From assembly GCA_038727135.1 (NCBI GenBank), contig JAVYWL010000001.1, positions 160,001 through 224,000 of the forward strand: a stretch of DNA of 64,000 bases, written 5' to 3'. The DNA is from Candidatus Bathyarchaeia archaeon (GTDB lineage: Archaea > Thermoproteota > Bathyarchaeia > Bathyarchaeales > Bathycorpusculaceae). The notes under the pieces are model-generated. The model was not told the DNA's origin, ran no database searches, and worked only from the letters and a program-made list of their open reading frames with translations. The first letter of the stretch is position 1. Each line of letters begins with the position of its first letter. Both the position numbers and the translations under genes were made by a program. Below, piece by piece: positions 120-22,839 of the stretch.

Positions 120-1205
120 CTAAGTTATATGTGGAGAAGGTTTTACGTCAGAGGCTTTAGCCCAGAAAAGGTAAACTTTTGTCTGCATTAGGAAGCTTAG
201 CCTTTTCAACACTTTTGCCAGCCCTTCACTGTTTAGCTTTTCTATTTTTTCTTTGAATTCCGTGTGGCTTGGGTAGGCTTTGCTTGCTGGTATGATTCTT
301 TTTCTTGGGATGACGCCTTTCTCTGAAAGTTCTGTTAGGATTTTTATGATCTCGCTTCTGCCGATTTCGTTTATCTTTTCTATGTTGCATTTCTGGTTTT
401 GGAGCATGTAGGGCTTAAAGCCTAGGGCTTCCAGCTTTTCTATGGCTTTTTGCAGATGGGGGTTGGGTTTGCTTTCTGCTATTTTTTGCATTCCAGCCCT
501 TTCAAAGAAGGGGTTGTATTTTGCCATAACTGCCAGTGTTTCCACGTAGGGTGTTCCAGCTAATGGTAGGGTTTCTTTGACGAGTTTTGTGCCTAAGCCT
601 ATTGCACGGTATTTTGGGTGTATTATTACTCGGGTTATTGTGCTGACTTGTTCTTGGAGTTGTTGGTGGTTTCCTTTCCAGACTTGGCTTCTGCCGAACA
701 TTGTTGGCGGCGGGTGGCTGTAGACGATTACTCCGCATGTTTCTTCTTCGCGTTTCATGGCGAAGATTTTTCTTGGCGGTGGCAGGTGGCTTGAGCGGTA
801 GTGGAATTGGCTTAAAGCCTTGTAGTCGGCTGTTGTGCCTTGTTCTATACGTATTTCTCGGGTTAGGCTGCACTCTTTTGCTGGTGTGTTTGGTTGGTGG
901 TGGACTGTTATTTCTTTGCCTAACCTCTTGTGGATGTGAACTGATGGGTTTAGGTCTTCGTGGAGGTCTGTGTGGGTTGTGGCGGCTATAACTGTTTTTG
1001 CCATGCGTCTTGCTGTTTTTTGGAGGTTGTATGCCACTATTTTTGCTGTGTCGCGGTCTAGAGTTGCTGCGAACTCGTCTAGTATCCAGAATTGGGCTTG
1101 GCTTTCTATTAGTTTGGCGATTTTGTATCGGTATTTTTGTCCTTCGCTGAGTTGCCGATAGGTGCGGAGGAATAGGAAGGCGTCATTTAGGCCTACTAGG
1201 CTGAG
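120..1205 (-). pseudogene. 5'-truncated ABC ATPase-GNAT acetyltransferase fusion
   Basis: Frame is open from 1205 (LSLVGLNDAFLFLRTYRQLSEGQKYRY = ABC signature; FWILDEF = Walker B; ATTH = H-loop), followed by GNAT motif RVIIHPKYRAIGLG. Walker A and N-terminus are missing; in-frame TAA at 1206-1208. Confidence 0.8.
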
Positions 1206-1974
1206 TTAGCCATGTGTTTTGGTCTTCTGCCCATTCTGCTTGCATTTCGCGTTGCCATCGCCACTGGTCGTTTTCCAGCTGGCGCCTAATCTTTTGGAGG
1301 ATTTCGCGTTTTAGTGGTCCGTTGGGTTCTGTGGCTTGTTGGTGGGTTACGTGGCTTTTTGCGTAGTCGCTGTAGGCTGGGTCGTGCCAGATCCGCCAGA
1401 AGATGCTGTCTGTGTGCCATGGCGTTGATGTGCATATGAATTTTCCGTTTGTTGCGCTTAGTGTAAAGAGTATGGCGTCGTAGAGTTCTTTGTCGTTTGG
1501 TATAAAATTGAATTCGTCTGCGTAGACGATATGCAATGTTGGTCCGCGTATTGTTTCCGGATTGTTCGGATAAGCCTCTATTATGCTTCCGTTTTTTAGG
1601 CGTACCGCCGTTTGCTGGGGTTTTTCGTATAATCCTTTTGGGAGCCTTTTGAGGAGCGTGTTTATTCGGCGGACGACGTGTTTTGTTTGGCGCCAGCTTG
1701 GTCCAACTATGCCTATCTGCGTGTTTGGGTTTGTTAGTGCGTAGTGGAGTAGGAGGGCGGATACTGTTTGGGTTTTTCCGCTTTGACGGCACCATCTGGC
1801 GGCTGTGAATTGGCTGGTTTGGAACTGGCGGATTAGGTCTGTTTGGTACTGGGTTGGTTGGAAGCCTAGGATTTGGGTGCAGAATTCTATTGGGTCTTTT
1901 GGTATGGGCGGCGTTAGGGCTTCAGCAAGCGCCTGTTCCAGTTGGCGGAGTTTTTGTTTTTGTCTTGGCTTCAT
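1183..1974 (-). pseudogene. terL: Terminase large subunit, ATPase domain only (nuclease domain missing)
   Basis: PTQYQ Q-motif, RQSGKT Walker A, IVYADEF Walker B, STP motif; ends at EWAEDQNTWLTQ where ABC sequence begins. Confidence 0.85.
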
Positions 1975-2320
1975 CTATGAGCCTCTCGAGTTTTGCTAGG
2001 TCTTCATCTATTTGGTGTTCGTCGAAGTGAGTGGCTACGCCGTTTATTATTTGGGCTATGTAGGCGGCTACGCGTGCCCATCTTTGCCTCTGGCTGATGG
2101 TTATTCTTTGGGGTTTGCCGTTTTCTGTTTGGTATTGGATTTCTCCTTTTGCCATTTCGGAAGCCATGTTGAAGAGTTCTTCGAGTTGTTTCATGGTTTT
2201 CAGTCTGATTTTCTGGGTATCTGTTTTCACCTCCTCTTTTAGTTCTGCCACTCGTCTCTTCAACATGGCTGTGCGGGAAGGCTTTGCGGTGTCAATTTTG
2301 CTAGGCTGGAAGGACTGCAA
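1922..2320 (-). CDS. Putative terminase small subunit
   Basis: All-helical ~130 aa ORF immediately upstream of and overlapping terL. Confidence 0.55.
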   Translation of the reverse strand: MQSFQPSKIDTAKPSRTAMLKRRVAELKEEVKTDTQKIRLKTMKQLEELFNMASEMAKGEIQYQTENGKPQRITISQRQRWARVAAYIAQIINGVATHFDEHQIDEDLAKLERLIDEAKTKTKTPPTGTGAC

Positions 2321-2335
2321 AATTGGATACCCCCT

Positions 2336-2566
2336 CTAGGTTTTTTGTGCTATGAGGATGCCGCTTACTGTTCCAGTTAAGCCTGTTATGGCGGCGAAGA
2401 TTTCGCTATTCCATCTTCCAAGAAAAGCCAGGTGGGCGACTTCTAGGGCGGATAGGCATATTGTCATGGCTATGGCGAATTTTATGCCTATGAGAAGCCT
2501 TTGGTCTGGTGGGATTTCGCCCTTGCGGGTTCTTCTTGTTAAAGCCTTTTTAATCCAGTCAGGCAT
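2336..2566 (-). CDS. Small two-TM membrane protein
   Basis: Basic N-terminus and two hydrophobic segments; in terminase operon. Confidence 0.65.
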   Translation of the reverse strand: MPDWIKKALTRRTRKGEIPPDQRLLIGIKFAIAMTICLSALEVAHLAFLGRWNSEIFAAITGLTGTVSGILIAQKT

Positions 2567-2951
2567 GGTTTTCAACCCTCTGTTGGTGGTGTTTTTTGCC
2601 CTTTATTGAGGCGCGTTTGCCGCCCACCAAGAAGCTGTTTAGGAGCTGTTTGGCTTCTTCAGGCGGAACATGGGCTTTGGCGATTACATTGGTGTTGCTT
2701 GTCCAAGCCAGTGGCACAGCCGTATAGTCAATGTCGTAGAAGCCATCAGCATAGCGAAAACAGTTCTGAGCCAAAATAATATGCCGGTTCTTAGAACCCA
2801 AAACGCCTAGAAATATGCCCCAACTGACGACCGGAACGTCTATGCCGTTTAAACCGCCGCTTAGGCTTTTGCCTATGCTGGCGTCAAACCACTCAACACG
2901 AACCAAATCACCAAGACTTAAACCTTTAACCCGCCTAACAACCTCCCTCAT
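2559..2951 (-). CDS. Hypothetical beta-barrel (SH3/Sm-like) protein
   Basis: GDLVRVEWFDAS...SWGIFLG pattern; first gene of terminase operon. Confidence 0.65.
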   Translation of the reverse strand: MREVVRRVKGLSLGDLVRVEWFDASIGKSLSGGLNGIDVPVVSWGIFLGVLGSKNRHIILAQNCFRYADGFYDIDYTAVPLAWTSNTNVIAKAHVPPEEAKQLLNSFLVGGKRASIKGKKHHQQRVENHA

Positions 2952-2986
2952 ACACCATCATCAAACAGAACACAAGCAAGGATTGA

Positions 2987-2994: not shown

Positions 2995-3029
2995 AGAGGC
3001 AAAATTCAGAAATTTACAAATTCATAAAC

Positions 3030-3527
3030 TTAAGGGATACGAACGCCTTTGGGAATTATAGTTGAGAAATCTATTTCTTTTTTCCGTTCATCCCATTGAG
3101 CAATAAAGATATGCCTATCGCGCGAATAGTAAAGTATATCATTCCTTCTGGCAACATTAAAAAGAAGATTTATTGAATTTGAGACTCCTTTTGGTGAAAG
3201 TATTATAGAATACAATGGTAAGGCAACCTTGCTGTATCCTAACAATTGGGAAAAATCCCGTAGGTTTATTCTACCGAGTTTACATTCAATAAGTCCCAAA
3301 TGCGCTTCTTTGTCTGATTTTACAACAACCCCGGTTACATCAACTTCAACCTCATACGTTTGGTGGTCAGGAAAGTATACATGAAAACCTTTCTCAAGAA
3401 GCCATTTTGAGAGAACCTTTTTAGAAGTATCCTCGACACATATTCTAGCATTTTTAAACTTACTTTGCAACGTTTTCTTGAACCACAAACAGACATCAGG
3501 ATACATTTCTTTCTCTTTCTTATACAA
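3030..3527 (-). CDS. PD-(D/E)XK nuclease (Mrr/McrC-like catalytic domain)
   Basis: E...VDV...IECK...QLLGY motif set. Confidence 0.7.
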   Translation of the reverse strand: MYKKEKEMYPDVCLWFKKTLQSKFKNARICVEDTSKKVLSKWLLEKGFHVYFPDHQTYEVEVDVTGVVVKSDKEAHLGLIECKLGRINLRDFSQLLGYSKVALPLYSIILSPKGVSNSINLLFNVARRNDILYYSRDRHIFIAQWDERKKEIDFSTIIPKGVRIP

Positions 3528-3534
3528 TTCCTTT

Positions 3535-4515
3535 TCACTTCTTCTTTTTAGATTCCATCCATTTGGTCAGTCGTTTATGCCTTTTAACGAAATTTGCGTA
3601 TCTTACGCAACCCAAATCCGCGCAAATCTGCCAATAAGAGTCGTAATGCTTTCCACGAATTTCTAAAGGTAGTTTCTCAGAATTTTCAGCAGGATGCTTC
3701 GGTTTAGTTTTTCTTCTTTTTGGCGGATTGCAAAAGTTTGCCTTTGCAAACCCCTTCGTCTTATTATATTCTGCAAGTTCTTCAAGTATTTCTTGTTTAT
3801 GGGACATATAGAAACCTATTTTCTCAAAATCATCTGCAAAAATTTTTATTTGGTGCTCTCTCGCCCAAGCATCCTTCCGTCCAGCCTTATATTCCCTTAA
3901 ACTTGGGTCTCTAGTATTAGGGTGACCCCACTGAATAACATCTACAGGAATTCCCAAATGATCTTGCAAAAGATGACAAATTTGAACCGGCAAACGCCAA
4001 TTGGATGGACTGTTAAGGACATCCAGATAAACCCTACATTTTCCCCACCTATTTCTGTTCGCCCACCTGGCAGATCCAGCAACATCGGCAAATCCGCGGA
4101 TAAATTCCTTTTTAATGGAATCGCTTGACTCAAAAATTTGGTCGGGAATTTCGAACTCATAGTAAGAGCTTCTACCTTTCATAAGCATTCTGATATTCCG
4201 CAAAAACATGGTATTTTTTAATGTTTCGAGTACAAGATAGACCGAATGTTCGCTCTCAGTTTTTCTAACGTTAACATCTGCAAGTTCATTAACCCTATTT
4301 ATGGCTCTGTCCAAGCTTAACAATATTTTATCTTTTTGTGTTATCTTCTTCTCTACACCTTCAACCTCTAAATTCCTAAAGGGAAATTCTATGGAAATTC
4401 GCTTTACTCTTCCTTGATCAGATATTTCGCCCCTAGCGGTTATTAATCCAATAAAATAAGCCACATCTTCATCGATATAGTCAAGCGAGGTCTTCTTCGA
4501 CTTCAATTTCTTCAA
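3535..4515 (-). CDS. LAGLIDADG-fold-like DNA-binding protein, restriction-associated
   Basis: Two degenerate LAGLIDADG helices (AYFIGLITARG; EFIRGFADVAG); lies between MTase and nuclease. Confidence 0.6.
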   Translation of the reverse strand: MKKLKSKKTSLDYIDEDVAYFIGLITARGEISDQGRVKRISIEFPFRNLEVEGVEKKITQKDKILLSLDRAINRVNELADVNVRKTESEHSVYLVLETLKNTMFLRNIRMLMKGRSSYYEFEIPDQIFESSDSIKKEFIRGFADVAGSARWANRNRWGKCRVYLDVLNSPSNWRLPVQICHLLQDHLGIPVDVIQWGHPNTRDPSLREYKAGRKDAWAREHQIKIFADDFEKIGFYMSHKQEILEELAEYNKTKGFAKANFCNPPKRRKTKPKHPAENSEKLPLEIRGKHYDSYWQICADLGCVRYANFVKRHKRLTKWMESKKKK

Positions 4516-5335
4516 CCCTATTCTTCCTGAATATTAAGATGTATTCATGAACTTTATTCACAATGAAAACATACGGATAGCCCAATGGTCGCAAGTTACT
4601 GTACTCTTTACGTCTATCCCAAATTATTATATCTTCAAGAAGAAAACCTATCTCCGCCATCATATTTGCTACGCGCATATGAAACGGAATGAACTGAGAA
4701 CCTTGACGAATATCCATAACAATAACGATACATCGTTTACCGTTTTTTAAAACAACATAAACTTTTTCAAAAATAGACTTCAATTCATCCATAAACTTAT
4801 TGAAATCTGAGATGTTCCCGAGATCCCTTTCTAAAGACGAATATGGTCTTGGTTCCTTATAGTCTGCCGTCCTCTTTCTTGTATGAATGTTCCAGTAGGG
4901 GGGAGAAGTTATCACTAAATCCACAGAGTTAGGTTTTACATACATCAATAGGTTTTTGGCGTCCTCACAATAAATATCAGGATCTTCAACACCAAGGTGT
5001 ATAAGCTTCTGTTGAGATATCCTCTTTTTTGCAAGCTCTACAAAATCTGGGTTGATATCAAAACCAATTCCCTTCCGTTCCAAGTCTCTAGCAGCAACTA
5101 TTGCACTACCACTACCCATAAAGGGGTCTAAAACCACATCACCTTTTTTAGTATATATCTCAATCAGTCTTCGACATAATTCCACAGGAAACATAGCTGG
5201 ATGTTTGAGTTTAACTTCTTCCCTTGACTTTACAATATCCCATATGCTAATAGAATATCTCTCCCAAGTTTTCCCATCTAACTCGTTCAACTTCTCCTTT
5301 TTCTTAATGGTTGCCTGAACTTCCTGGTCATTCAT
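4481..5335 (-). CDS. DNA amino-methyltransferase (likely N4-cytosine), circularly permuted
   Basis: HPAMFP, LDPFMGSGS (motif I) precede ITSPPYW (motif IV); C-terminal HEYILIFRK. Confidence 0.9.
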   Translation of the reverse strand: MNDQEVQATIKKKEKLNELDGKTWERYSISIWDIVKSREEVKLKHPAMFPVELCRRLIEIYTKKGDVVLDPFMGSGSAIVAARDLERKGIGFDINPDFVELAKKRISQQKLIHLGVEDPDIYCEDAKNLLMYVKPNSVDLVITSPPYWNIHTRKRTADYKEPRPYSSLERDLGNISDFNKFMDELKSIFEKVYVVLKNGKRCIVIVMDIRQGSQFIPFHMRVANMMAEIGFLLEDIIIWDRRKEYSNLRPLGYPYVFIVNKVHEYILIFRKNRVEEIEVEEDLA

Positions 5336-5436
5336 AAGCCTCACTACTCTAAATTGTATTTGTGTAGGTTATTTATAAGTTGAGATATTATGAAAGTGCA
5401 AGGTAAGAGCGCGGTGGTTTAGGGTAAAGTGAAAGC

Positions 5437-5679: not shown

Positions 5680-6594
5680 ATGAAAATGAAACCCAGAAAG
5701 TTTGAAGGCATATTTGTCCCATGCATTACGCCTTTCACGGAAAAAGGCGAAATAGACTTTGAAGCACTACGCACATGCACACGGTTCTGGATTGAAAATG
5801 GCATAGATGGGCTTATGCCTTGTGGCAGTAATGGCGAAGCCCCCTACCTGGCGAGGGAGGAACGCCAAAAAATAGTCGCCACAGTCCTAGAAGAGGCTAA
5901 AAACAGCGTGAGGGTTGTTGCTGGCACTGGTGCGCCCAGCACATGGGAAACCATACGCCTAACAAGAGACGCCAAGGACTTGGGCGTTGACGCCGCAGTA
6001 GTGGTTACACCCTACTATTTTAGGCTTTCAAACCGAGAACTAATAGCCCACTACAAAGCTGTTTTAGAGGCCGTAGACCTGCCAATAATCCTATACAGCG
6101 TTCCAAAGTTTACAGGCTACGCCCTAGAACCAGCCGTAATAGCAGAACTCGCCAAAGAATATTCGAACGTGGTGGGCGTGAAGGACAGCGGCGGAAACAT
6201 AGCCACAATAACGGAGACAATACGCCTAGTAGGCGAAAAAATGGCTGTTTTGGCTGGAACAGCTGACGTTGTGCTGCCAACACTAATGTTGGGAGGAAAA
6301 GGCGCCGTAATAGCCGTAGCCAACACCTACCCTAAGCTTTGTGCAAACCTATACAAAGCCTACAAGCAAGGCAATATCGGAAAAGCGGCAAAACTTCAAA
6401 GGACAATAACCCACATAAACGAAGTTCTAGTCAGACGCTTCAACCAGCTCTCAGCCATAAAAGAAGCAATGCGGATGTTAGGATTGCCTGGAGGCTACCC
6501 GCGCATGCCAACCCTACCCCTAAGCGATGTGGAAAAAGCCGAAATAAAAAGCCTACTGGAAGCTGTCAAGGTGGAGGCGGAAACTGAAGCCTAA
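5680..6594 (+). CDS. dapA: Dihydrodipicolinate synthase / class I aldolase family
   Basis: GSNGE, TPYY, YSVP..TG and Schiff-base KDS motifs. Confidence 0.85.
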   Translation: MKMKPRKFEGIFVPCITPFTEKGEIDFEALRTCTRFWIENGIDGLMPCGSNGEAPYLAREERQKIVATVLEEAKNSVRVVAGTGAPSTWETIRLTRDAKDLGVDAAVVVTPYYFRLSNRELIAHYKAVLEAVDLPIILYSVPKFTGYALEPAVIAELAKEYSNVVGVKDSGGNIATITETIRLVGEKMAVLAGTADVVLPTLMLGGKGAVIAVANTYPKLCANLYKAYKQGNIGKAAKLQRTITHINEVLVRRFNQLSAIKEAMRMLGLPGGYPRMPTLPLSDVEKAEIKSLLEAVKVEAETEA

Positions 6595-6769
6595 GCCTCT
6601 TTATTAGGGCTTTCACCCGCTCCCCATCCCTCAAGTAATCCTCGATTATGGCGTTTACAAGCTGATAAATCCTCAAATCATTCAACAATGCCAACTTCCG
6701 AACCTCCCGATGCAAGTCTTCACGAACTTCCACGACTGTCCTCCTAAAATCCCTAGACAACCCGCGCAC
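6566..6769 (-). CDS. Small ribbon-helix-helix-like protein
   Basis: TVVEVREDLHREVRKLA...LVNAIIEDYL pattern; last gene of tail operon. Confidence 0.55.
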   Translation of the reverse strand: MRGLSRDFRRTVVEVREDLHREVRKLALLNDLRIYQLVNAIIEDYLRDGERVKALIKRLRLQFPPPP

Positions 6770-8369
6770 CCACCTTATAACGGCTCAAATGGTCTGTCCT
6801 GCTGCGAAGCACATACAGGTAATCCGCCAGCATTGGCGTTTCCCTTCCAAGCTCCAGTGTAACCTCAAGCGTCTGCGTTTTGGCGTCAACATAGTATTCC
6901 ACGCTTTCAACACGGAAATAGCCGCCAACACCCTCGTTTGGTAGTTCCATATAAACTCTGTCCGCGGCAAGAATTGGCGTAACGCCATAGTCTAACACTG
7001 TGGTTTTTATGGTTAACGATTCTGTTGGGTTCTTGTAATAGTTGAGGAGGGCTTTAGCCCTTAAAAGGCATTCATTGTCGCTTTTCAACTCTTCATCAGT
7101 TTCTGTTAGCTCCCTTAAGCCGTAGGATGATTGGCTGCCGGCGTCTTCTTGCATGGCGTAGTAGCGGCTGTCCGACAGGTACAGGTGGTCAAGATAAAGC
7201 CAAATGTCCTCACATATCTGGCTGAAATAAATGATGAAGTCTATGCCCGTGAAGGGGTTACGCCAGTCAGCGTTGCCAACCTTGTTCCATGAAGGCTGGT
7301 CTGTCCGTAAAACAAGTTTGCCCCAAGTGTTTGCCGGCGGAAGCATAGGCTTAATGTCCATGTCAAAGTGGTCGTTGCTGCTTTGCCAGAGGCGACAGTA
7401 AGCGTTTGCTAATCCGTAGGCTGGATAATTCCCCCACATAATCCAAGTGTTAATCTGTTTGAAGCCTTCTGGACCACTAAACTTCAGATTGTTTAAGCTG
7501 CGGTACAAGTAGAGTTGAGTGCCTCCGCCATAAGCGTAAACACAGTAAGCGTCCGAATACTTCTTCTGCCCATCCTGCGTCACATGGTCTGAGTAGGTGC
7601 TTATTCCCCCGTTAGACTGCCAGCCAACCGTGGACTCTGTCCAACCATCCTCATTAGCGTCTGAAGGCAATTTTCTTTCGGCTGCTCCGTAAACGTGGAT
7701 TCTGTTTCTTATGCGGCTAATGTCCTTGCGGTATTCATACTCTTCAATAATTTCGGAAAGGCTTACAGGCGAAGTTTTGCTGTTCCGCTTGAAAAACTCG
7801 AATTTTCCGTCTGGAGCCACTCGGAAATCGTAGCCTATAACGCCATTATAGTCGGCTGAATCGGCAATATAACGGATTATGTCAAAAACAGGCGTGTTTT
7901 CATAATTCAGCTTAACATAAGTTGTGGTTGTAGTCTCTACAAGCTCTGTGCTGTCCCGCGTGTGGCTCAAACCAACAAGGTTATCCAGCAAATATTTGAC
8001 TATATCCTCGCCTTTCATGTTTTCAAAAATGCCCGTAAAAACTCGACGGAAGAGGCGCTCTCCAACACATCTTCCGCCCACACGGATATAATGCTCGGCT
8101 GGCGTGTTTTCGTATTTTAGGCTTTCAATTCGGCAGGTGATTATCTTGGGAACATTTGTGCCTCTCCCGATGGAAATTGAGCCATCCATGCCAACAGTCA
8201 ACGGAATAGAGCCGCCGGGGCTATATTTTCCATTCCAGTTTTGCAGTGTAAGCTCGAAGCTGCTTACTTCTTTTGTGCAGCCGAGATGCACTCGACACTC
8301 GATAATGTCGTTTTCATCTATGGAATAACTGCCGAAAGCAACACTTATTCGTGGAATGTCAACGCTCAT
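6753..8369 (-). CDS. Tail tip / baseplate hub protein with central beta-rich insert
   Basis: Follows tape measure; hub-like N- and C-terminal parts (YDFRVAPDGKFEF; YFRVESVEY...VTLELG). Confidence 0.7.
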   Translation of the reverse strand: MSVDIPRISVAFGSYSIDENDIIECRVHLGCTKEVSSFELTLQNWNGKYSPGGSIPLTVGMDGSISIGRGTNVPKIITCRIESLKYENTPAEHYIRVGGRCVGERLFRRVFTGIFENMKGEDIVKYLLDNLVGLSHTRDSTELVETTTTTYVKLNYENTPVFDIIRYIADSADYNGVIGYDFRVAPDGKFEFFKRNSKTSPVSLSEIIEEYEYRKDISRIRNRIHVYGAAERKLPSDANEDGWTESTVGWQSNGGISTYSDHVTQDGQKKYSDAYCVYAYGGGTQLYLYRSLNNLKFSGPEGFKQINTWIMWGNYPAYGLANAYCRLWQSSNDHFDMDIKPMLPPANTWGKLVLRTDQPSWNKVGNADWRNPFTGIDFIIYFSQICEDIWLYLDHLYLSDSRYYAMQEDAGSQSSYGLRELTETDEELKSDNECLLRAKALLNYYKNPTESLTIKTTVLDYGVTPILAADRVYMELPNEGVGGYFRVESVEYYVDAKTQTLEVTLELGRETPMLADYLYVLRSRTDHLSRYKVGARVV

Positions 8370-8370
8370 G

Positions 8371-8913
8371 CTATTCTACGCCTCGCCTATAAAGTTCCAT
8401 TTCACCAGCCCTACGAATGCTTCTGCCAGCAAAGCTGAGTTCACTAGCCGCCTCGTTGTATTCGCGGACGCTTTCTGTGGCGTTTCGCATTTGGCTGGCA
8501 AAATAGGATATGGCAGCAGCAGCCCCTATAATGGCGGCTATTCCAACGCCCGTTAAAGCTAGGAAGGTGGCGAAGCTTATGTTTAGGGCTTGCTGGGCAG
8601 CGTTGGCAACCCAACAAGCTGCGGCATAAACTTTCTGGGCTACAGCTACACCCCAACTGGTGCGCATAAACATGCCCATGGTGGTGACAAGGTATGTGAG
8701 GCTGGCTAAGGCTCTTGTTTGCTCGCTGTTTAATAAACCGAAGGAATGAGCAATGTGGACAACCGCTGAGCCGGCGGCTCCTAAACCAGCCATTGTGGCG
8801 CCGAGGCTTTTAATCCGCACGCTCAAGGTTTCGGCGTCTGATTGGATTCTGGCAAACTCGTGGCTTGCGCGGTTTATGGCGCGGATGGTTATGGCTATTT
8901 CACGGAAACTCAT
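8371..8913 (-). CDS. Very short tape measure protein (180 aa)
   Basis: IAITIRAINRAS N-terminus, Ala/Gly-rich helices, AAQQALN motif; position after chaperone and gp10. Confidence 0.7.
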   Translation of the reverse strand: MSFREIAITIRAINRASHEFARIQSDAETLSVRIKSLGATMAGLGAAGSAVVHIAHSFGLLNSEQTRALASLTYLVTTMGMFMRTSWGVAVAQKVYAAACWVANAAQQALNISFATFLALTGVGIAAIIGAAAAISYFASQMRNATESVREYNEAASELSFAGRSIRRAGEMELYRRGVE

Positions 8914-9468: not shown

Positions 9469-9800
9469 GCTGTTTCCTCAAAGCTGACGCTGTTAAGCCT
9501 ATTGACAATTTGGCTGAATAACTCGCCGAGAGCTATTGGAACGCCCTTTTCTGGGTCTTCGCTGAGAAGCTTTTCAAGGCTAATGGGTTGGTGGGGTGGC
9601 TGCTCTTTAAGCGAAGCCATTATTGTTTCTGCTTGGATGGCTATGTAGTCGCTGCTGATGACTTGCCCTGTCAACGGGTGGTATTTTGTGTATTTTTGGA
9701 TTATGCGGCTCCGCCTCGCCCATGTCAATTCTTGGAAAACGTATTTGCCAGCATACTCCTTGCCGTACTCTTCGCCTATCACAACGGTTTCTGTTCGCAT
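9423..9800 (-). CDS. Tail assembly chaperone (gpG-like)
   Basis: Between tail tube and tape measure; ATG overlaps tube stop (TAATG). Confidence 0.75.
   Translation of the reverse strand: MRTETVVIGEEYGKEYAGKYVFQELTWARRSRIIQKYTKYHPLTGQVISSDYIAIQAETIMASLKEQPPHQPISLEKLLSEDPEKGVPIALGELFSQIVNRLNSVSFEETAFLSAASDAKNQTKR
9462..9468 (-). other. -1 ribosomal frameshift slippery heptamer T TTT TTA
   Basis: GCT TTT TTA in chaperone frame, X XXY YYZ phasing correct. Confidence 0.75.
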
Positions 9801-12497: not shown

Positions 12498-12502
12498 AAG
12501 GC

Positions 12503-15527: not shown

Positions 15528-15808
15528 AGCTTCCTCAATTGTTCAATTAGGCTAACCACGTCGTGCGTCTGTAAAATGGAGAGAAGCTCGACAATTTGTC
15601 TGGAACGCTCCTGTCTTGTAATTTCGTCCACTTCATAGTCTGGTAAAACGCCATTTTCAATGCTTTCCTTTTCATGCAGAAGCCAAAGAACGGCGTGAGC
15701 TTTCTCGAAAAGCTCTCGGCTTATTTTCTTTTCAACATAGTAAAGCCTTGTCAGTTTATCATGTAAAGGCTTCCAAGCATCATCTACGTCTTTGCGGGTT
15801 TTAGACAA
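15524..15808 (-). CDS. Hypothetical protein
   Basis: ORF coupled to 14106-15527 (ATGA overlap). Confidence 0.55.
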   Translation of the reverse strand: MSKTRKDVDDAWKPLHDKLTRLYYVEKKISRELFEKAHAVLWLLHEKESIENGVLPDYEVDEITRQERSRQIVELLSILQTHDVVSLIEQLRKL

Positions 15809-15820
15809 TTAAGCCACCAT

Positions 15821-16309
15821 CTACGGGTTTTGGAATTGCACTTCCACTTCAGCCGTCCACTCTTCACCGCTGCTTTTGGTCCCTTTGCTTGCCACTATAC
15901 GAAGCATGTTTACAGCAGCGTCGCTGCCTCCATTAGCCACTGTAACCTCATTCCAAGCAAAGTTTGCCTCGTTGCTTCCAAAGACACTTCTGAAAACGGC
16001 TTTCTTGTCGCCGGCTTGTGAAGGGCCTTGTGGATAGCCGCTTGCCATGCCCTTATAATACTTGTTTGTGCCTTGAAGCCCCGTTTGACTTTCGCTTTCA
16101 GAGGCTGTTCCGTCGCCCACGCCGATGTAAGCGTTTGAGCTGTTAAAGGGGGTTGCAGTTAATCCCAAAATTAAGTTCCACATTTCATTCATGCCTTCGA
16201 TGAGGAAGCAGTTGTGGCTGCTTTCTTCTACGCTGTAGGGTTTCTGCTCGTAGACACGCCTTTTAATCACACGATACTTCACCAACGCGCCTACTCTAAT
16301 CTTCTCCAT
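15821..16309 (-). CDS. Minor virion structural protein
   Basis: YIGVGDGT...QTGLQG...FGSNEANFAWNE motif seen in phage minor tail/fibre-base proteins; SD GGAGG before ATG 16309. Confidence 0.65.
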   Translation of the reverse strand: MEKIRVGALVKYRVIKRRVYEQKPYSVEESSHNCFLIEGMNEMWNLILGLTATPFNSSNAYIGVGDGTASESESQTGLQGTNKYYKGMASGYPQGPSQAGDKKAVFRSVFGSNEANFAWNEVTVANGGSDAAVNMLRIVASKGTKSSGEEWTAEVEVQFQNP

Positions 16310-16358
16310 TTTCAATCCTCCATTTTGTTTTGGGTTTCTCGCATAAGCGGAAAGCCGC

Positions 16359-16592
16359 CTATGTTCGAGCCACCTCCCGCAAGGTTCCGTCAGCATTCCA
16401 AGAAAAGGTGAGGGTGAAAAGAAGCTCGTCGCCCATAAACGCCTTGAGGGTGTTAACAGTGCCATCAGCGTTCCAAGTAAACGTCAGCTTTGTAACCCTT
16501 TTACCGCTTGGCGGCGCCATAAGCCCGCATAAGGCGCTGTGGACAGCCTTGAAAGCCTCTTCATAACGCCAATAGGGCACCTCTTGGTTCAT
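16359..16592 (-). CDS. Small virion-associated protein
   Basis: Duplicated LTF.WNADGT motif. Confidence 0.55.
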   Translation of the reverse strand: MNQEVPYWRYEEAFKAVHSALCGLMAPPSGKRVTKLTFTWNADGTVNTLKAFMGDELLFTLTFSWNADGTLREVART

Positions 16593-16615
16593 TTTGCTTG
16601 CACTCCTCCATGTTC

Positions 16616-16855
16616 TCAGTGTTTTGCGGTGTCCACGAGCTTCTGAAGCCAAACTGTGATGGCTGTTGGTCCAACAAGCGCCGTGTAAACGTCAAAGGTC
16701 ATTCCAGCCAAGTCCAAGCCAAGAGCAGAGAAAACCGCAATAGCCACTGTCCGCAGGAACTTTCGCCAGTTGAAGGGCTTATCTTGGGCTGCAAATCCGA
16801 GAAAGGCGTAGGTTAAGGCGGCGCCCACGCCTAAACCAATATGTAGAAGGTTCAT
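16616..16855 (-). CDS. Holin-like small membrane protein
   Basis: 79 aa, 2-3 TM segments, FNWRKFLRT; strong SD GGAGGTG. Confidence 0.55.
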   Translation of the reverse strand: MNLLHIGLGVGAALTYAFLGFAAQDKPFNWRKFLRTVAIAVFSALGLDLAGMTFDVYTALVGPTAITVWLQKLVDTAKH

Positions 16856-16964: not shown

Positions 16965-18185
16965 TTAGGCTTCCTTCCGCCTTTCTGGAGTGGTTTCGGA
17001 GCGCTCCCACAACTCCCAACCCCACTTTGAGGCGTTCTTACGAAACTCTTCTGGGCGGATAAGCCCTAATTCGGCGGCTTTCAACATGTCTGCAACGCTT
17101 ATCTGGGGCGTCTTAGGAGAACCCCAGTTTAGGCGAACCCCAGCCTCAACAGAGTCTAGTCCAGCCTGAAAAAGAACGGGCTTGAAAATGGCGTGTTCCA
17201 CTTGCCGCTTAATGTAGCGTTGAATGGGTTTTATGAGCATATCCTGCAGCTCCAATGCGGCTTTGGCGCTGGCTTCGGTGAAGCCCGGAGTGCTGAAAAG
17301 CCTCGGCAGTGGCGTTTCACAGCCAAGATAGAACTGGTTAACAATGTAGTCGATGTAATATTCAAATCTGGCTCTGGGGTCTATTGTGAGCGGTTTTATG
17401 TCGCCTCTCCCGCTATAGAATAGCCAGACACCCTCTTCTGGGCGGCTCTTAATGGCTTTTTCAAACTTTTGGATAGTGCCGGCGTCAGCCCTCTCCAGTA
17501 GGGCTAAAACGTCTGGTCCGGCATACTTCTCAAAGATTTTTGGCATTATGCGTTCAATTTTTGCTTTCATCCAGGCGTAGGCTGGTCGCCGGTCAGAAAA
17601 GAAGGCAAGCGTATGCAATAGAACCTGTAAAACACCTGTTCCAAAACCGGAAGAGCCTAAACAGTTTATTCGCCAGTGGATAACCGCCTCTGGATTTAGG
17701 GTTTCGCCGCCATAAGCCAAGCGGAGCTTGTAACCCTCAACCTTGTATGGGATTTTCAGTCCGCCATCTTGGATTAGGCTGTACTCGATTTTTTCTACGG
17801 CGTCCACTGGCAACCGCTGGAGACCTGTGAGCCTTTCAGGTGTTATTTTGAGCCAGAAATCGTTTCCACAGGCGATTAGAACTCTTGCCATATCGCATAA
17901 GAGCATGTCCAAATTAGCCTCTTCGTTAAATTGGTCTATGACTCGTTTGGCTTCCCCAGCCCTTGCATAGTTCTCGTTTACCGTTGTGTAGAAGCCCATT
18001 CCAACGGCTGAAGCCGCCAAAAGGTCTACGCTTGCCTTGCATGCTGGATCCCGCTCATAAAGCCTCATAACATCAGCCAACGGAATGCTCGGCGTCTCGT
18101 AGACCATTTGAGGTTCTACGGAAGCGTAGCCGCTATGCCTCTTCAAAGTGAAAGCTTCAATGAGCCTTCTTAAAACGCCGCTCAT
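16965..18185 (-). CDS. Portal protein
   Basis: LIACGNDFW, VIHWRIN...GFGTG, IKPIQRYIKRQVE portal-type motifs. Confidence 0.8.
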   Translation of the reverse strand: MSGVLRRLIEAFTLKRHSGYASVEPQMVYETPSIPLADVMRLYERDPACKASVDLLAASAVGMGFYTTVNENYARAGEAKRVIDQFNEEANLDMLLCDMARVLIACGNDFWLKITPERLTGLQRLPVDAVEKIEYSLIQDGGLKIPYKVEGYKLRLAYGGETLNPEAVIHWRINCLGSSGFGTGVLQVLLHTLAFFSDRRPAYAWMKAKIERIMPKIFEKYAGPDVLALLERADAGTIQKFEKAIKSRPEEGVWLFYSGRGDIKPLTIDPRARFEYYIDYIVNQFYLGCETPLPRLFSTPGFTEASAKAALELQDMLIKPIQRYIKRQVEHAIFKPVLFQAGLDSVEAGVRLNWGSPKTPQISVADMLKAAELGLIRPEEFRKNASKWGWELWERSETTPERRKEA

Positions 18186-18189: not shown

Positions 18190-18429
18190 CTACAAGCCCT
18201 CCAGAAGCTTCAAACCCTTCTCTGTTATCATGTATGGTGCACGGTGACGCCTCTCGCTTTTCGCCACGTAGCCGCCTTGAACAAGGTATCGGAATATCCC
18301 CTCGAAGGCGCTGTGGGTTCCAAACTGGCGGATAGTCCTCTTCTCCAGCTCTGTCCTGCCCAGCGGGCGTTTTTTAAGCTCTGAAAGTACAATCTTCGCC
18401 AAGTGCAGCCTGTCGCCGAGCTTACGCAT
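18190..18429 (-). CDS. Winged-helix DNA-binding protein
   Basis: YLVQGGYVAK...YMITEKGLKLL. Confidence 0.7.
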   Translation of the reverse strand: MRKLGDRLHLAKIVLSELKKRPLGRTELEKRTIRQFGTHSAFEGIFRYLVQGGYVAKSERRHRAPYMITEKGLKLLEGL

Positions 18430-18679
18430 CAGCCATAACCTCCACAGGCTTTTGCGTGCCATAAAAATTGGGGTGGTGGCGGGTGCAAACCATTAGGACT
18501 TGCATTTCCCTTAAGCCGTCCAACCCGTAGGTTTTCGGCGCAGTGTCAGGCGTGTAGGGCGTCATCTCCTCTCCGCATATTGGGCAGATGCGCCAGCAGT
18601 CGCAGACTACGGCGTCTTGTCTGCTTCGCAGATGGTGGGTTCTGCCGCATTTCTGGCATTTTGCAACAAGAGTTTCCAT
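18422..18679 (-). CDS. Zinc-finger protein
   Basis: CQKC, CDC, CPIC, C..H. Confidence 0.7.
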   Translation of the reverse strand: METLVAKCQKCGRTHHLRSRQDAVVCDCWRICPICGEEMTPYTPDTAPKTYGLDGLREMQVLMVCTRHHPNFYGTQKPVEVMADA

Positions 18680-18729
18680 AAAGGATGCACCCGCCACCCT
18701 TTTTCAAGGATTCTTCAGCGACTGTTTGG

Positions 18730-19683
18730 CTACAGCGAAGTGCTAATGTTGACCATTTTGGCTACTGCCTTGCTGCGTAGTACGCCTAAGCCAAAGCGGG
18801 TTGTTGCCCTAACTCCGAACTCGCCCGTCCTAGGGTCTTCCCAGTCCTCCACAGTTATGTCTCTGCGGAGAAGCATGACCGCTGCCACTCTTGTGTCTAT
18901 GGCGTAAGCCACTCCGTTGGGCACTAGGGTGCTTGCCAAAACCTTCATGCCTAAAACGCTGCCGACAACGCCCCGCTCCAAATCCACATGTTCGGAAGGC
19001 AGGTACTGCGCATGAATGAACTTGTCATCGTTAAGCAGTTGGTGGAGTTGAACCTCGTTTAGGGCTAGCACTGTTGGACGCCAGTTTTCGCCCCTAACAG
19101 CATTGTGAAGCTTAACAACGCCAGACCAGTTTAGGGCTTGCCCATTATTGTCTATTGGGGCGCCGCCAGCCAAATCCGCATTGGCAATAGCCCCATACAT
19201 GGATAGAATCTTGTTGGTTTCAGCCTCGCCTAGGGCTCTTCCAACCTTCTCAGTCATGGTTTCCATAACATTCCATGTGGCGTCTTCCAAAAACTCCCTA
19301 GTCCAAACTTCAGAAGCCTCAGCCACAATGTTTGTGTAAACGTCCACGGTGCTGACCTTCTTGCCACTAAGCCTCGTGTAGGCGCCCTCAGCATAACGAT
19401 AAGCCACAGCCTTCTCATCTAACGGGAATCTTTCCATGGCTTCAGTTGTGGGACGCACCATTACGATTTCTCTTCCAATCATTTCTGGGTAGGCAGCCTC
19501 AACCAGCGTATCATGCATATGCCCAATGGCGCCAACGGTGTCGCTGAAAAGCCTCTCTTTAAGGGCTACCTCACAGTAACGCCTCAAAAAAGGGTGCGAC
19601 GAAGCCCTTCGGCTCAGATTCTCCATGAGCTGGCGGAACTCGCTGTCCGTCTCCATCAAACTCTCAAAAAGTCTCGGTTTCAC
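18730..19683 (-). CDS. Major capsid protein (HK97 fold)
   Basis: AEG E-loop, WTREFLED, GSVLGMKVLASTLVP, TRFGLGVLRSKAV. Confidence 0.85.
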   Translation of the reverse strand: MKPRLFESLMETDSEFRQLMENLSRRASSHPFLRRYCEVALKERLFSDTVGAIGHMHDTLVEAAYPEMIGREIVMVRPTTEAMERFPLDEKAVAYRYAEGAYTRLSGKKVSTVDVYTNIVAEASEVWTREFLEDATWNVMETMTEKVGRALGEAETNKILSMYGAIANADLAGGAPIDNNGQALNWSGVVKLHNAVRGENWRPTVLALNEVQLHQLLNDDKFIHAQYLPSEHVDLERGVVGSVLGMKVLASTLVPNGVAYAIDTRVAAVMLLRRDITVEDWEDPRTGEFGVRATTRFGLGVLRSKAVAKMVNISTSL

Positions 19684-19695: not shown

Positions 19696-20127
19696 CTACT
19701 TTTCCACGTAGATGAAGATGAGGTCTTCAGCCGCAGAGGCAGACTCCAAAGCCCACCCAAGCTTGCGGTTATAGTATATGGTGTAGGTTGCTGTCCCACC
19801 TTCGTTCACGGCTTGGTCTGTCAACTGCAGTACCCGCCTACTGGAATCAGCACCGTAAACCGCTTTACCACGAGTTACAGCGCCGCCAACCTTCACCTTA
19901 ACTCTTCCACGAACCAGCACTGGGCAAGGATCGCCTGCCGCCACACTCTTTAGGGCTATGCCAATACAGTCCTGCGCTGAAGCTGCTGGGCTAACCTTGT
20001 CATCAGCACTTAAATAGACTGGGTCGCCCTTTGTTATGGCTGCTGCAGCCTCAAAGGTTTCAATAACGGCCCTAGGGTCGTCTGTTTCGCCGATACCCAT
20101 CCAAGGCTTACCAGTGTTGTCAGCCAT
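19696..20127 (-). CDS. Capsid decoration/cement protein (DUF2190-like)
   Basis: AAAAITKGDPV...IGIA...G.V.V pattern, upstream of capsid. Confidence 0.75.
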   Translation of the reverse strand: MADNTGKPWMGIGETDDPRAVIETFEAAAAITKGDPVYLSADDKVSPAASAQDCIGIALKSVAAGDPCPVLVRGRVKVKVGGAVTRGKAVYGADSSRRVLQLTDQAVNEGGTATYTIYYNRKLGWALESASAAEDLIFIYVEK

Positions 20128-20235
20128 AAACCCACTCCCTCTCCAAACGTGAAACTGGTTTCAGCCAGTTCGTCCTGGCTTACTCCCGAAAAGGCGTGAA
20201 AACCGTCAAAGCAAGTTTCAAAGTCTAAAATCATT

Positions 20236-21405
20236 TCATTCACCGTTCCCGCCAAACTTCTGAAGCTTGTAGATGACGCCGCGAAGTTCTTGGCACATGC
20301 GCTGCGGGCCTAGACCCCAGCTTCTCTCAACCATTGGGCTTGGCAAAACGTTCCTAAGCATTCCAATAACTGTCTCCACTGGAATCACACGCTTGGCATT
20401 TTTCACAAAAACCCCTTCAACCAAGCTTCCGCTGTTTACGCTGACGCCTTTGCCAACGCTTTGGGAAGCCTTAACTGGTGTCATGTAGGCTGGATGCAAA
20501 CTGAGCCAGTCGCGGATTTTCCGTTCATCCCACATCTTCTCCTTGGCAAAGAATATGCTCTGAACAAGGCTGGTGTCCGGCTCCGCTTTAGGGCGTCCCA
20601 TGATGGCTAAAACTCCATTTTCACGGTCAAGCCAAACAGTGGCGAAATGCTCCGGCATAAAAGCCTCCACGTCCTGGTAAAATCCAAGAATGTACTCTTC
20701 AGAAGCTATTGGGCTGAAGCCCTGCTCACTAAGCCTCTCCAAGATTTGGATGTTTGCCTCTGGCACGCCTGGAACAGCCACAAGGCTGAGTTCGGCGTTG
20801 TGCAATCCTCTAGGAATTTTGCCATCAACAAAATCCAGCCTCTCATAGTCGGCGCCTATGCTCACGTGGCGGATTAGCCCCTTGCGGATTTTTTCAGCTA
20901 TTTCGTCATCGTAAATTTCAGCCTCATACCATAGGCTCTTGCCATCCCATTGGGCATCTACAACCTTTCCAACAGCATTCGCGGCAGCCACATGCTCCAC
21001 ATAAACGGGCGCGGAAACAAGCCGACTGGCAAAGGCTTCAAGCTCTTCTGGCAAGTAAATGTTCAAGTTTCGGCTCATGCCAGCAGTTAATGCTATGCCG
21101 CGGATGCGCAGCGGCTTATCAACAACCTTCTCAAGCACTTTGAAGGGCAAGACGGCAAAGTAGTGCTCCTTTCTGCCACGATGCCTTTCAAACCATTCTT
21201 TGGCCTTCTCCAAAGTCCATCCCTTAGAAACATCAAAAAGGTAGCTAACCACCTCAGTGGAGCCTTTGCCACCCTTGGGCTTGCCAATGATGGCTTTAAT
21301 CCCATCAGCCTCAGAAAGCACAATAGTGCGGAGACTTTCAGGCTCAAACTCATCCGGGTTTCGGTGGCCACTACGAATATAGTTGGCGGTTACTTCCCAA
21401 GGCAA
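20236..21405 (-). CDS. Prohead protease flanked by a duplicated ~70-aa domain
   Basis: SRNLNIY, PVYVEH, VSIGA, ELSLVAVPG protease motifs. Confidence 0.75.
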   Translation of the reverse strand: MPWEVTANYIRSGHRNPDEFEPESLRTIVLSEADGIKAIIGKPKGGKGSTEVVSYLFDVSKGWTLEKAKEWFERHRGRKEHYFAVLPFKVLEKVVDKPLRIRGIALTAGMSRNLNIYLPEELEAFASRLVSAPVYVEHVAAANAVGKVVDAQWDGKSLWYEAEIYDDEIAEKIRKGLIRHVSIGADYERLDFVDGKIPRGLHNAELSLVAVPGVPEANIQILERLSEQGFSPIASEEYILGFYQDVEAFMPEHFATVWLDRENGVLAIMGRPKAEPDTSLVQSIFFAKEKMWDERKIRDWLSLHPAYMTPVKASQSVGKGVSVNSGSLVEGVFVKNAKRVIPVETVIGMLRNVLPSPMVERSWGLGPQRMCQELRGVIYKLQKFGGNGE

Positions 21406-21558
21406 CCGGACACCAGCCCCTTAACACGCCGTTCTCAGTAAAAGAGAATACAGCAAAGAAAATGAAAAGCCGAATTGTACCACACAAGGGCCAATCTATT
21501 AGCCCAAACACGGCCCAACCTGTTAGCCTAATGGCAAAATTTTCAGAATGGGAAAAGG

Positions 21559-21903
21559 CTAGTCTTTTGTTTTCCACCATATTATTGGGAAGAACCAGAA
21601 GAAGGGCCAGATAACCCAATACTCCTCAGCAGCATGGGTGCATATTGTAAATATTGTTCCGCATTTCTTGCACCTCATTGTGCGTCTTCCAACAAGCTCT
21701 AGCTCTTTTGAGCCACATTTTGGACATGCATAATCCTCCACTTTTATGACTTGCGGCCTCTCGTAGTAGGCTGAGGTTTTCATCCATTTTAGGAAGGACA
21801 GTGCCATAAAGGCGAAGATTAGGAGGAAAAGCACAAGCATTAGGATTATGATGATGCTTGCGATAAGCGAAACGTCAAAAGCCATTACGCCTAGATCACC
21901 CAT
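21559..21903 (-). CDS. Membrane protein with zinc ribbon
   Basis: TM, CPKC/CKKC, aromatic C-terminus. Confidence 0.65.
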   Translation of the reverse strand: MGDLGVMAFDVSLIASIIIILMLVLFLLIFAFMALSFLKWMKTSAYYERPQVIKVEDYACPKCGSKELELVGRRTMRCKKCGTIFTICTHAAEEYWVIWPFFWFFPIIWWKTKD

Positions 21904-22136
21904 GTTATTATTTCCTCTCCACGCTTTTGTTTTCGCCTTAACCAAGCCCTTATGAATTCCTCTATCTCGCGTTTGTTGTAGGGGTCTTGCCAAGCGTTTT
22001 CTAGGGCTTGACACTTGTTTAACGCGCCCACAAGCCCAAAATAGGCTAAAAGCTCATGGTAAAGCAGCTCTTTTTCCGTTTCATTTAGCATTACGCCGAT
22101 TTCGGCTAGGATTGCGGTTAGAACTGCTCGGCTCAT
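21891..22136 (-). CDS. Hypothetical protein
   Basis: Coupled to 22133-22564. Confidence 0.6.
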   Translation of the reverse strand: MSRAVLTAILAEIGVMLNETEKELLYHELLAYFGLVGALNKCQALENAWQDPYNKREIEEFIRAWLRRKQKRGEEIITWVI

Positions 22137-22564
22137 GGGCGTTTCCTCGCGCCTTCTTTGGTTTTGAGCCATTCCTCGTACTGTTCTAGGGCTCTTTGAA
22201 TCTGCTTGTAGATGAAGTCTTCAGCATTGGCATAGGGCGTGTCCATCTCTTTTAAGGCTTTGTTTAGTCTTTCATAGTCTTCCCTTGGAACTTCCACATA
22301 CTCGTATTCGCCGGATTCCCACTTCAGCATGAAGCGCACCGCCTGGCGGATAAACTCCTCCTTAGTTGTGTAGCCCCTTCCTCTGTGGGTTTGGATGAAG
22401 CGTTCAACCTCGCCTAGGAGTTCTGGCGGCAATATAACCGACTGGTATAGCATAGCCTCAATGGCGTCTTGGTATGTTTGCATCTTGCTGGTTTGAGCCA
22501 TAAGCTCGCCGAGCAGAGCGGTGAGTTTCTGATGGACGTCATCTGATATGCGCAACGTTTTCAT
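22133..22564 (-). CDS. Multi-RHH transcriptional regulator
   Basis: MKTLRISDDVHQKL; VILPPEL...KEEFIRQAV; VEVPRE - three RHH-like units. Confidence 0.7.
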   Translation of the reverse strand: MKTLRISDDVHQKLTALLGELMAQTSKMQTYQDAIEAMLYQSVILPPELLGEVERFIQTHRGRGYTTKEEFIRQAVRFMLKWESGEYEYVEVPREDYERLNKALKEMDTPYANAEDFIYKQIQRALEQYEEWLKTKEGARKRP

Positions 22565-22656
22565 TTTAACCCCTTTTCTCCGTGATATTTTGTGTGGAGT
22601 AAGTCTTTTAAGTGTTTCTGATATACTAAATATACAGAATACGCTGAAGGCAAAAA

Positions 22657-22839
22657 GTGATGCCTAGAAAACGCATAGTAAAAGTTGTCCTAAGCGCCGA
22701 GCAAAAGGAAATATTAGAGGAGCTTTCGAAGAGACTTGGCACAAGCGAAAGCGAAACCCTAAGGATGGCTTTAATGAACTACGCGAAGGAGCTAAGCCTA
22801 ATGAAGGAGCGCGTCCGAAAACAAGCCCCAAAACCCTAA
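22657..22839 (+). CDS. CopG/RHH regulator
   Basis: VKVVLSAEQKEILEELSKRLGTSESETLRMAL. Confidence 0.75.
   Translation: MMPRKRIVKVVLSAEQKEILEELSKRLGTSESETLRMALMNYAKELSLMKERVRKQAPKP

Follow-up and report, generated by a model that had tools for sequence, protein, structure and literature searches.

An integrase-less provirus locus of Bathyarchaeia, probably kept by selection and disabled in one genome

We analyzed a 64,000-nt stretch of DNA (hereafter the window; C1:160001-224000 of genome G000) from a member of Bathyarchaeia, an abundant uncultured class of archaea, and focused on a cluster of tailed-virus head, tail and packaging genes at positions 120-22839. The cluster probably represents an anciently grounded provirus lineage that is kept by selection where it survives, with a disabled copy in G000. 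One provirus copy, in an ancestor shared by many genera of the archaeal family, would have lost its integrase and early region, a loss that would have put its head-assembly gene within ~0.5 kb of a host gene that neighbors a PAS/GAF kinase. Such a copy would have been unable to excise and would since then have been inherited mainly by descent. The archaea or the element itself may still gain from making particles, and we favor occasional particle production that would move the locus and neighboring DNA between cells. The original prediction for this DNA had proposed a domesticated virion-making locus resembling a gene transfer agent (GTA), possibly decaying here, with an ordinary cryptic provirus as the alternative. 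The domesticated locus fits better because there is no integrase, the host junction is shared, the copies have a single origin, synonymous divergence (dS) tracks that of the host flanks, virion-gene dN/dS is low (0.03-0.2), and this copy has two lesions; GTA function itself is possible.

Results

A fixed locus without an integrase

The genome (1.55 Mb in 7 contigs, 94.7% complete) carries the window on a contig of ~820 kb, with host genes flanking the window on both sides. Below, G codes denote genomes (G097 is an IMG/VR record), L codes denote capsid-bearing loci, and w22970 denotes a small host gene at 22970-23302. Copies are termed linked if the capsid gene lies close to w22970 at the shared host junction and unlinked if it lies elsewhere. 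We scanned the open reading frames (ORFs) of 120-22564 against Pfam and PHROG and 32 ORFs of 120-23302 against Pfam, tabulated synteny across genomes with tblastn, and surveyed genus-level distribution in 61 genomes, one per genus. G003, G005, G007 and G009 belong to the same genus as G000, as do G001, G002, G011, G012 and G013.

The scans confirmed the predicted minus-strand head-tail-terminase cluster lacking an integrase and tRNA: there are 0 tRNA genes in the window, and the closest matches to PF00589 on the contig (C1:4939 and C1:312136) lie far from the cluster, ~155 kb away on its left side and ~130 kb on its right. Pfam found no primase, helicase or polymerase family among the 32 ORFs. 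Near the locus, PF00589 was likewise absent from all of G000, G003, G007, G009, G019, G021, G031, G034, G035, G066, G069 and G087; in G005 the sole nearby match is weak, a 218-aa ORF (C2:264758-265231) beyond three host genes. This ORF sits where G000 has tRNA-Ile and tRNA-Arg and may mark a separate integrated element. No attachment-site (att)-like direct repeats of at least 14 bp flank the cluster, the one 12-mer found being inside coding sequence. The left side has two TldD/PmbA genes and a GNAT gene, with tRNA-Arg and tRNA-Ile 4.3 kb from the cluster; we rejected these tRNA genes as the integration target because the intervening DNA is taken up by the TldD/PmbA and GNAT host genes. An element bounded by an integrase and att sites, as would define a provirus, was thus not seen at the locus.

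The position of the cluster is conserved. The same cluster with the same flanks was found in G003, G005 and G007, and G009 agrees as far as its contig reaches. In other genera as well (G019, G021, G025, G031, G034, G066, G069 and G087), the head end adjoins w22970 and the kinase, with the head-assembly gene ~0.5 kb from w22970 across genera. In most linked copies w22970 lies 2.1-3.7 kb upstream of the capsid gene; G009 (~5.0 kb) and G007 (4.6 kb) have it farther away. From rpoB to the capsid gene, the distance is 43-50 kb in G000, G005, G031, G035 and G069, 24 kb in G087 and 227 kb in G021. Fourteen of the 61 genomes surveyed have the capsid gene at most 4 kb from w22970, 5 more have one of at least 72% identity on another or short contig, and 2 have distant or unlinked matches only. 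The linked loci, 13 of which were scanned for PF00589, show two features expected of a GTA, an integrase-less structural cluster and a conserved chromosomal position. The kinase-receiver neighbor that had been noted is present after three small genes, and its flank is kept across genera; proximity to the kinase had also been used as an argument, but it is no evidence of regulation. The small family to which w22970 belongs has no Pfam match; it occurs in 60 of 61 genomes of the archaeal family in several copies each, here as a tandem pair.

Relation to integrase-bearing viruses

Capsid protein matches were found at 49 IMG/VR loci and 61 genome loci (58-99% identity), and almost all relatives share one gene order: head-assembly, cement, capsid, portal, neck, tube, 180-aa gene, hub, two small genes and large terminase (TerL). 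Locus L133, whose capsid is ~69% identical, lies on the same contig as BATPV1, a temperate provirus of 33,358 bp according to the part of PMC11705971 that describes it. With the HK97-fold capsid, portal and TerL all homologous and syntenic, the cluster is, as judged by sequence, the structural and packaging part of a provirus from a tailed family specific to Bathyarchaeia that includes BATPV1. In the relevant parts of PMC11705971 and PMC10541130, BATPV1 and its relatives bear an integrase and are delimited as complete proviruses, whereas the lineage in the window has no integrase, occupies one locus and forms its own clade.

The mobile relative G097 (37.7 kb) illustrates this difference. It resembles the window in the family gene order, in its 182-aa tape-measure-like gene (180-182 aa among such relatives), and in an ABC ATPase after TerL (481 aa), but it carries a 477-aa integrase ORF and ~4 kb of early genes upstream of the head-assembly gene, where linked copies instead reach w22970. 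No recognizable replication protein was found among 8 G097 proteins scanned. Because this mobile relative likewise showed none, the replication-less character stressed in the original prediction is no distinguishing mark of the locus and does not argue for a GTA. The same holds for the gene order and the short tape measure, read earlier as signs of domestication: both are family traits common to integrase-bearing relatives.

Other arrangements were seen in the family. In L029, L032, L033, L036, L039 and L058, the portal is followed by two small genes and TerL without tail genes, which recalls capsid-forming satellites. G097 (L159 and L160) has at 28761-37000 a second tail module including a 973-aa hub protein and may comprise two tandem elements. 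G000 itself holds a second element remnant without a capsid gene (G000:C1:110998-121415, partly L002) near tRNA-Glu at C1:125535, with homologues of the head-assembly gene (49%), the 143-aa gene (73%) and the methylase (40%). For the cluster under study, we rejected two further classes. A tailocin is contradicted by head genes that are present and best conserved, and by G069 and G087, which keep heads without tails; a capsid-forming satellite (like capsid-forming phage-inducible chromosomal islands, cf-PICI) is contradicted by the presence of tail genes and the absence of an integrase.

Origin and descent of the linked copies

We collected 121 capsid rows and dropped 7 without a portal match and 10 duplicates (one row being both), leaving 105. 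In a FastTree of these rows, 30 of the 31 linked copies fell into a 46-row clade (support 96), together with 16 unclassifiable rows and 0 of the 23 unlinked ones. IQ-TREE on the 54 classifiable rows placed 30 of the 31 linked copies on one side of a branch with an SH-like approximate likelihood ratio test (SH-aLRT) value of 99.8. As reconstructed from these trees, the integrase-less linked copies share a single origin.

Within the genus, the linked clade follows the host tree, and its deep nodes conflict with rpoB. The rpoB tree reads ((G000,G003),(G007,(G005,G009))), and the capsid and portal FastTree gave the same five-taxon topology; a more careful capsid and portal tree recovered the pairs (G000,G003) and (G005,G009) and left G007 unresolved. 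Comparison with the host tree (rpoB alone), which had been suggested as a check, gave a mixed picture, with two pairs in agreement within the genus and conflict at depth.

Purifying selection and mosaicism

We calculated nonsynonymous to synonymous ratios (dN/dS) and dS by the Nei-Gojobori method for G000 against G003, G005, G007 and G009. The dN/dS of virion genes was 0.03-0.2 in these four pairwise comparisons (0.03-0.04 for the capsid), and that of flanking host genes 0.07-0.29, so the suggested dN/dS check bore out selection on the locus. Synonymous divergence from G005 and G007 was 0.55 and 0.64 for the portal, 0.59 and 0.67 for the tube and 0.65 and 0.69 for the kinase, with portal, tube and neck spanning 0.55-0.67. 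Where the cluster survives, its capsid, portal, tube and other virion genes are intact, whereas at such divergence ORFs under neutral decay would have been lost. Median dN/dS in linked and mobile copies was 0.063 and 0.056 for the capsid, 0.086 and 0.056 for the portal and 0.10 and 0.17 for cement, medians that are rough given dS near 1.1-1.2. Virion genes are under purifying selection as strong as in mobile relatives, and such selection after immobilization is what a GTA would be expected to show. The locus is also mosaic within the genus: between G000 and G005 the methylase cassette is 98-99% identical, the neighboring dapA 85% and YqbQ 73%.

Loss, exchange and conflict with the host tree

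The locus is often lost, gains cargo (dapA, DUF5305, a methylase cassette) and swaps modules such as TerL. Several observations of this kind weigh against long retention by selection and descent. No capsid match at E <= 1e-20 was found in 40 of the 61 one-per-genus genomes. Within the genus, G001, G002, G011, G012 and G013 hold only remnants of the cluster or nothing; elsewhere, G016 and G062 retain fragments only, the heads in G069 and G087 have neither tail nor terminase in the surrounding 18-20 kb, part of the tail is gone in G021, and two genes are split in G034. Identity between genera is 30-38% for TerL, compared with 76-84% for the capsid and 55-78% for neighboring genes. The approximately unbiased (AU) test rejected the rpoB groupings G066+G019 (p 2e-4), G031+G034 (p 3e-6) and G066+G019+G087 (p 7e-4), groups that were picked after the trees were seen and with rpoB alone as the host tree. 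L132 sits at the same locus with a partial head-assembly gene and head genes on a long branch elsewhere, and joining it to the linked clade was rejected (p-AU 0.0018). We checked two of the unclassifiable rows: L128 proved to be linked, and L130, inside the linked clade, has no w22970 match nearby. The virion genes have a GC content at third codon positions (GC3) of 0.51-0.57, just at the top end of host values; base composition gave no separation of the cluster from the host. Finally, parts of the head region were found in 19 runs from 9 studies, mostly hot-spring metagenomes, where the read evidence consists of contigs, so depth ranks no genes. One RNA library among the data yielded capsid-gene contigs with 0 differences over 333 and 287 bases, and contigs over the head-assembly gene, dapA and DUF5305 as well; DNA carry-over is possible, and the library is a weak hint of capsid-gene expression; stretches of the cluster that it leaves uncovered carry no information.

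Many of these observations would suit an ordinary cryptic provirus, in which an active virus repeatedly integrates at the same host gene, each copy loses its integrase, and selection comes from the viral phase. We consider this improbable. In its favor, integrase-bearing relatives do exist, several genomes have extra copies elsewhere, the deep nodes disagree with rpoB, the shared locus is occupied in L132 by head genes from a different lineage, terminases have been swapped between genera, and many copies have decayed. Yet 0 of the 13 linked loci have an integrase nearby (setting aside the weak match in G005), the junction is identical across genera, unlike G097 with its integrase and early genes, and 0 of the 23 copies elsewhere fall into the linked clade. 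Within the genus, topology and dS match the host; dapA is in the same place in two genera, and there are no att repeats. An anciently grounded lineage remains our preferred reading. Of the findings named beforehand as refuting a domesticated locus, a patchy distribution (through repeated loss), deep conflict with rpoB and integrase-bearing relatives were all observed; att repeats and an integrase at the locus were not.

Lesions in this genome

In G000, TerL ends at residue 258 of 454, its nuclease domain gone through a 985-bp deletion, and the TerL end (~1183) adjoins an out-of-frame, N-terminally truncated ABC-ATPase/GNAT gene. In G003, G005 and G007 the intact TerL is 454 aa with Terminase_6N and Terminase_6C and is followed by a 493-541-aa ABC/GNAT gene. 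There is no second TerL and no Terminase_6C nuclease domain elsewhere in the G000 genome, which thus lacks the complete DNA-packaging motor expected of a GTA. The gp10-like neck gene carries a 1-nt frameshift relative to G003, and the remaining cluster ORFs match the lengths in G003, G005 and G007. The claim that nearly every morphogenesis gene is present overlooked the truncated TerL, and the frameshift in the gp10-like gene was missed as well. At most, the G000 copy could make empty or incomplete particles, and it is on its way out.

It is very improbable that the lesions or the whole arrangement are artefacts of metagenome assembly or binning. The genome is metagenome-assembled, a 1-nt indel can be a consensus error, and contigs of three other runs depart from the window sequence at 1201/1202, exactly the deletion junction. 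Against this, other genomes, assembled independently, and IMG/VR contigs show the same arrangement, host genes lie on both sides on the 820-kb contig, and the deletion breakpoints are clean by blastn, with 89-97% identity on either side. Two runs have 2677 other letters where the window has the methylase cassette (3024-5539).

Gene inventory of the cluster

The features of the cluster and its right flank are as follows, in window coordinates.

120..1199, minus strand: ABC-ATPase/GNAT fusion, 3' remnant; relatives are 493-541 aa, and ~136 N-terminal residues are gone, including the P-loop region
1201..1206, no strand: junction of the 985-bp deletion relative to G003, G005 and G007, which truncates TerL and the ABC/GNAT gene
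1183..1974, minus strand: large terminase (T4-type), ATPase domain only, 263 aa; relatives are 454 aa with a nuclease domain
1922..2320, minus strand: 132-aa gene whose position on the upstream side of TerL makes it a small-terminase candidate; no Pfam or PHROG family match
2336..2951, minus strand: two small genes of 79 and 130 aa, conserved and placed ahead of the terminase genes across the virus family
3030..5344, minus strand: AT-rich cargo cassette with a 165-aa gene (3030-3527), a 326-aa gene (3535-4515) and an N4/N6 DNA methylase (4481-5344), from Pfam
5680..6594, plus strand: DHDPS-family gene (dapA-like), host-type insert, from Pfam
6753..8369, minus strand: YqbQ-like tail hub or baseplate protein, 538 aa, from Pfam/PHROG
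8371..8913, minus strand: 180-aa helical hydrophobic protein, candidate short tape measure by position and hydrophobic helices
8910..9280 (in-frame ORF 8910-9170), minus strand: HK97-gp10-like gene for a neck or tail-completion protein, with a frameshift near 9159; the G003 and G007 versions have 121 aa
9423..9887, minus strand: 154-aa gene that follows the tube gene in the coding direction, a position that makes it a tail-chaperone candidate; conserved family-wide, no family match
9800..10702, minus strand: tail tube protein (PF18906, E 5.7e-17)
10675..12856, minus strand: neck genes of 152, 461 and 117 aa, from the Pfam scan and weak fold evidence
13094..14095, plus strand: DUF5305 membrane-protein gene, cargo insert; genus-specific, absent in G007
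14106..16855, minus strand: variable block of a 473-aa protein, then 94 aa, 214 aa (phrog_23653) and 79 aa (membrane protein)
16965..18185, minus strand: portal (PF04860, E 9.3e-5; 22.2 bits, below the curated cut-off of 39.1)
18190..18697, minus strand: two small genes (90 and 91 aa) between capsid and portal; family-wide, no family match
18730..19683, minus strand: HK97-fold major capsid protein (PF05065)
19696..20127, minus strand: capsid cement/decoration protein (PF09956, PF23982, PF22758)
20236..21405, minus strand: 389-aa head-assembly protein, weak fold matches only
21559..22564, minus strand: genes for a 151-aa zinc-ribbon membrane protein and for a 143-aa protein that begins like a ribbon-helix-helix protein
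22657..22839, plus strand: 60-aa ORF at the right edge, ribbon-helix-helix-like as labeled from its sequence; element or host gene
Host flank, plus strand: small paralogues at 22970-23302 and 23403-23729, PAS/GAF histidine kinase at 23733-27656 (1307 aa), receiver at 27608-28075

The two plus-strand genes at 5680-6594 and 13094-14095 are the opposite-strand host-type inserts that had been predicted. The dapA-like gene is embedded at the same spot in two genera and persists where viral genes have been deleted. Both dapA and DUF5305 were inserted in particular lineages only, at cargo spots that vary, so their interruption of the cluster no longer serves as an argument for domestication. The methylase cassette, with a GC3 of 0.31-0.36, is confined to G000 and G005 and looks like recently exchanged cargo of the restriction-modification type. 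Its 326-aa protein has LAGLIDADG-like motifs, going by its residues. Next to TerL, the 132-aa gene is 98-99% identical in G005 and G007 and 60% in G003. The ABC-ATPase/GNAT fusion (120-1199 in the window, 11928-13448 in L071) lies 3' of TerL at the locus in G003, G005, G007 and G021. AT-rich TATA-like stretches upstream of the gene blocks are candidate promoter elements.

Several gene labels were examined individually. The mini tape measure of the original prediction holds as to its length of 180 aa (180-182 aa in all relatives, mobile ones included); the label itself comes from position, hydrophobic helices and a weak Atlas lead. The protein is helical with Gly/Ala-rich hydrophobic segments and had no Pfam or PHROG match; in the Atlas it lies closest to clusters of viral proteins 178-183 aa long, and one tape-measure family appeared at Atlas rank 15 with few shared features. 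The 389-aa head-assembly protein, labeled a protease earlier, gave weak fold matches only: it had no sequence-family match, and its sequence profile gave 0 matches against the PDB. The top folds for its structural model (predicted local distance difference test score, pLDDT, 58) were herpesvirus assemblins and T4 gp21 at E 0.01-0.1, with none at or below 0.001. It is probably a maturation protease with duplicated flanking domains. The 461-aa neck protein (model pLDDT 51) had no fold match at E <= 0.001 and 5 weak PDB profile matches, which weakly suggest a glycan-enzyme-like helical barrel with a C-terminal phage stopper- or neck-like domain. Judging from their sequences, the 90- and 91-aa genes may encode winged-helix-like and zinc-ribbon-like proteins.

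The portal is 93-98% identical within the genus, and a homologue of the 143-aa protein is present in mobile relatives. In the 473-aa protein (14106-15527), which has three internal ~110-aa repeats and a basic repetitive tail and is hypervariable between species, only the last 100-150 residues can be aligned when species of the genus are compared (56-64% identity); host recognition is a candidate role for this protein. Beyond the kinase-receiver pair, an NrdR-like repressor and an anaerobic ribonucleotide reductase at 29333-31973, both with ATP cones, are ordinary host genes.

Discussion

To our knowledge, GTAs are genetically well defined only in bacteria, and particle-mediated transfer in archaea has no assigned gene cluster. 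VTA of Methanococcus voltae is an archaeal virus-like particle reportedly proposed to move host DNA; for VTA we know of particles and transfer and of no assigned gene cluster. The present case is the reverse, a gene cluster known from its genes. Domesticated enterobacterial prophages and PBSX-type defective Bacillus phages are immobile, vertically inherited and kept by selection, and PBSX has a YqbQ/XkdQ-type hub, of the Pfam family matched by the hub in the window. Unlike these, the cluster belongs to another domain of life and another virus family, and its head genes are the best kept, which does not fit a tailocin.

The closest comparison by features is with the RcGTA-like large clusters of Alphaproteobacteria, which, in the portion of PMC5721377 concerned with them, lack an integrase, have conserved flanks and evolve slowly by largely host-like descent. 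The locus resembles them in its head, tail and terminase genes, its lack of an integrase, its conserved flanking host genes, its slow and constrained evolution, its decayed copies in some lineages and, tentatively, its mostly host-like descent with conflicts (PMC5721377, same portion). It differs in its archaeal host, far more frequent loss, exchanged terminases, circulating integrase-bearing mobile relatives, and the TerL without nuclease in G000.

We regard it as rather unlikely that the lineage is a working GTA-like system in which intact copies (G005, G007) are induced by the host and make short-tailed particles carrying host DNA or the locus, with G000 holding a recent loss-of-function allele. 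Besides the likeness just described, such a system is favored by complete head, tail and two-domain TerL genes in G003, G005 and G007, by selection equal in strength to that in mobile relatives, and by near-identical mosaic segments between species, which are compatible with DNA exchange at the locus. However, copies are often lost, even among members of a single genus, which speaks against a host function under strong selection, there is no sign of reduced head or packaging capacity, and kinase adjacency amounts to no regulatory link. Particles, packaging and transfer are predicted here from genes, which counts also against the grounded provirus lineage that we prefer.

A bolder version, to which we give only limited credence, is that the lineage is the first genetically defined archaeal counterpart of a GTA: a non-excising provirus that would persist through intact copies still building short-tailed particles, and these would package the locus and neighboring chromosome in situ. 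In recipient cells, homologous recombination at the conserved flanks would put the DNA back in place. Packaging in situ followed by reinstallation would explain the fixed locus, the virus-grade purifying selection, the mosaic segments and the deep tree conflict.

We found no prior description of this retained immobile archaeal provirus in the literature, where supplementary provirus tables may list the locus. The family also carries a warning, since IMG/VR "viral" contigs assigned to it include host-fixed copies. The locus provides a concrete and widely distributed GTA candidate in Bathyarchaeia, with natural knock-outs, namely G000 and the alleles reduced to heads or remnants, beside intact alleles in sister species of the same hot springs. 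Even on a cautious reading, it would be a case in which archaea have long retained an immobile provirus under selection.

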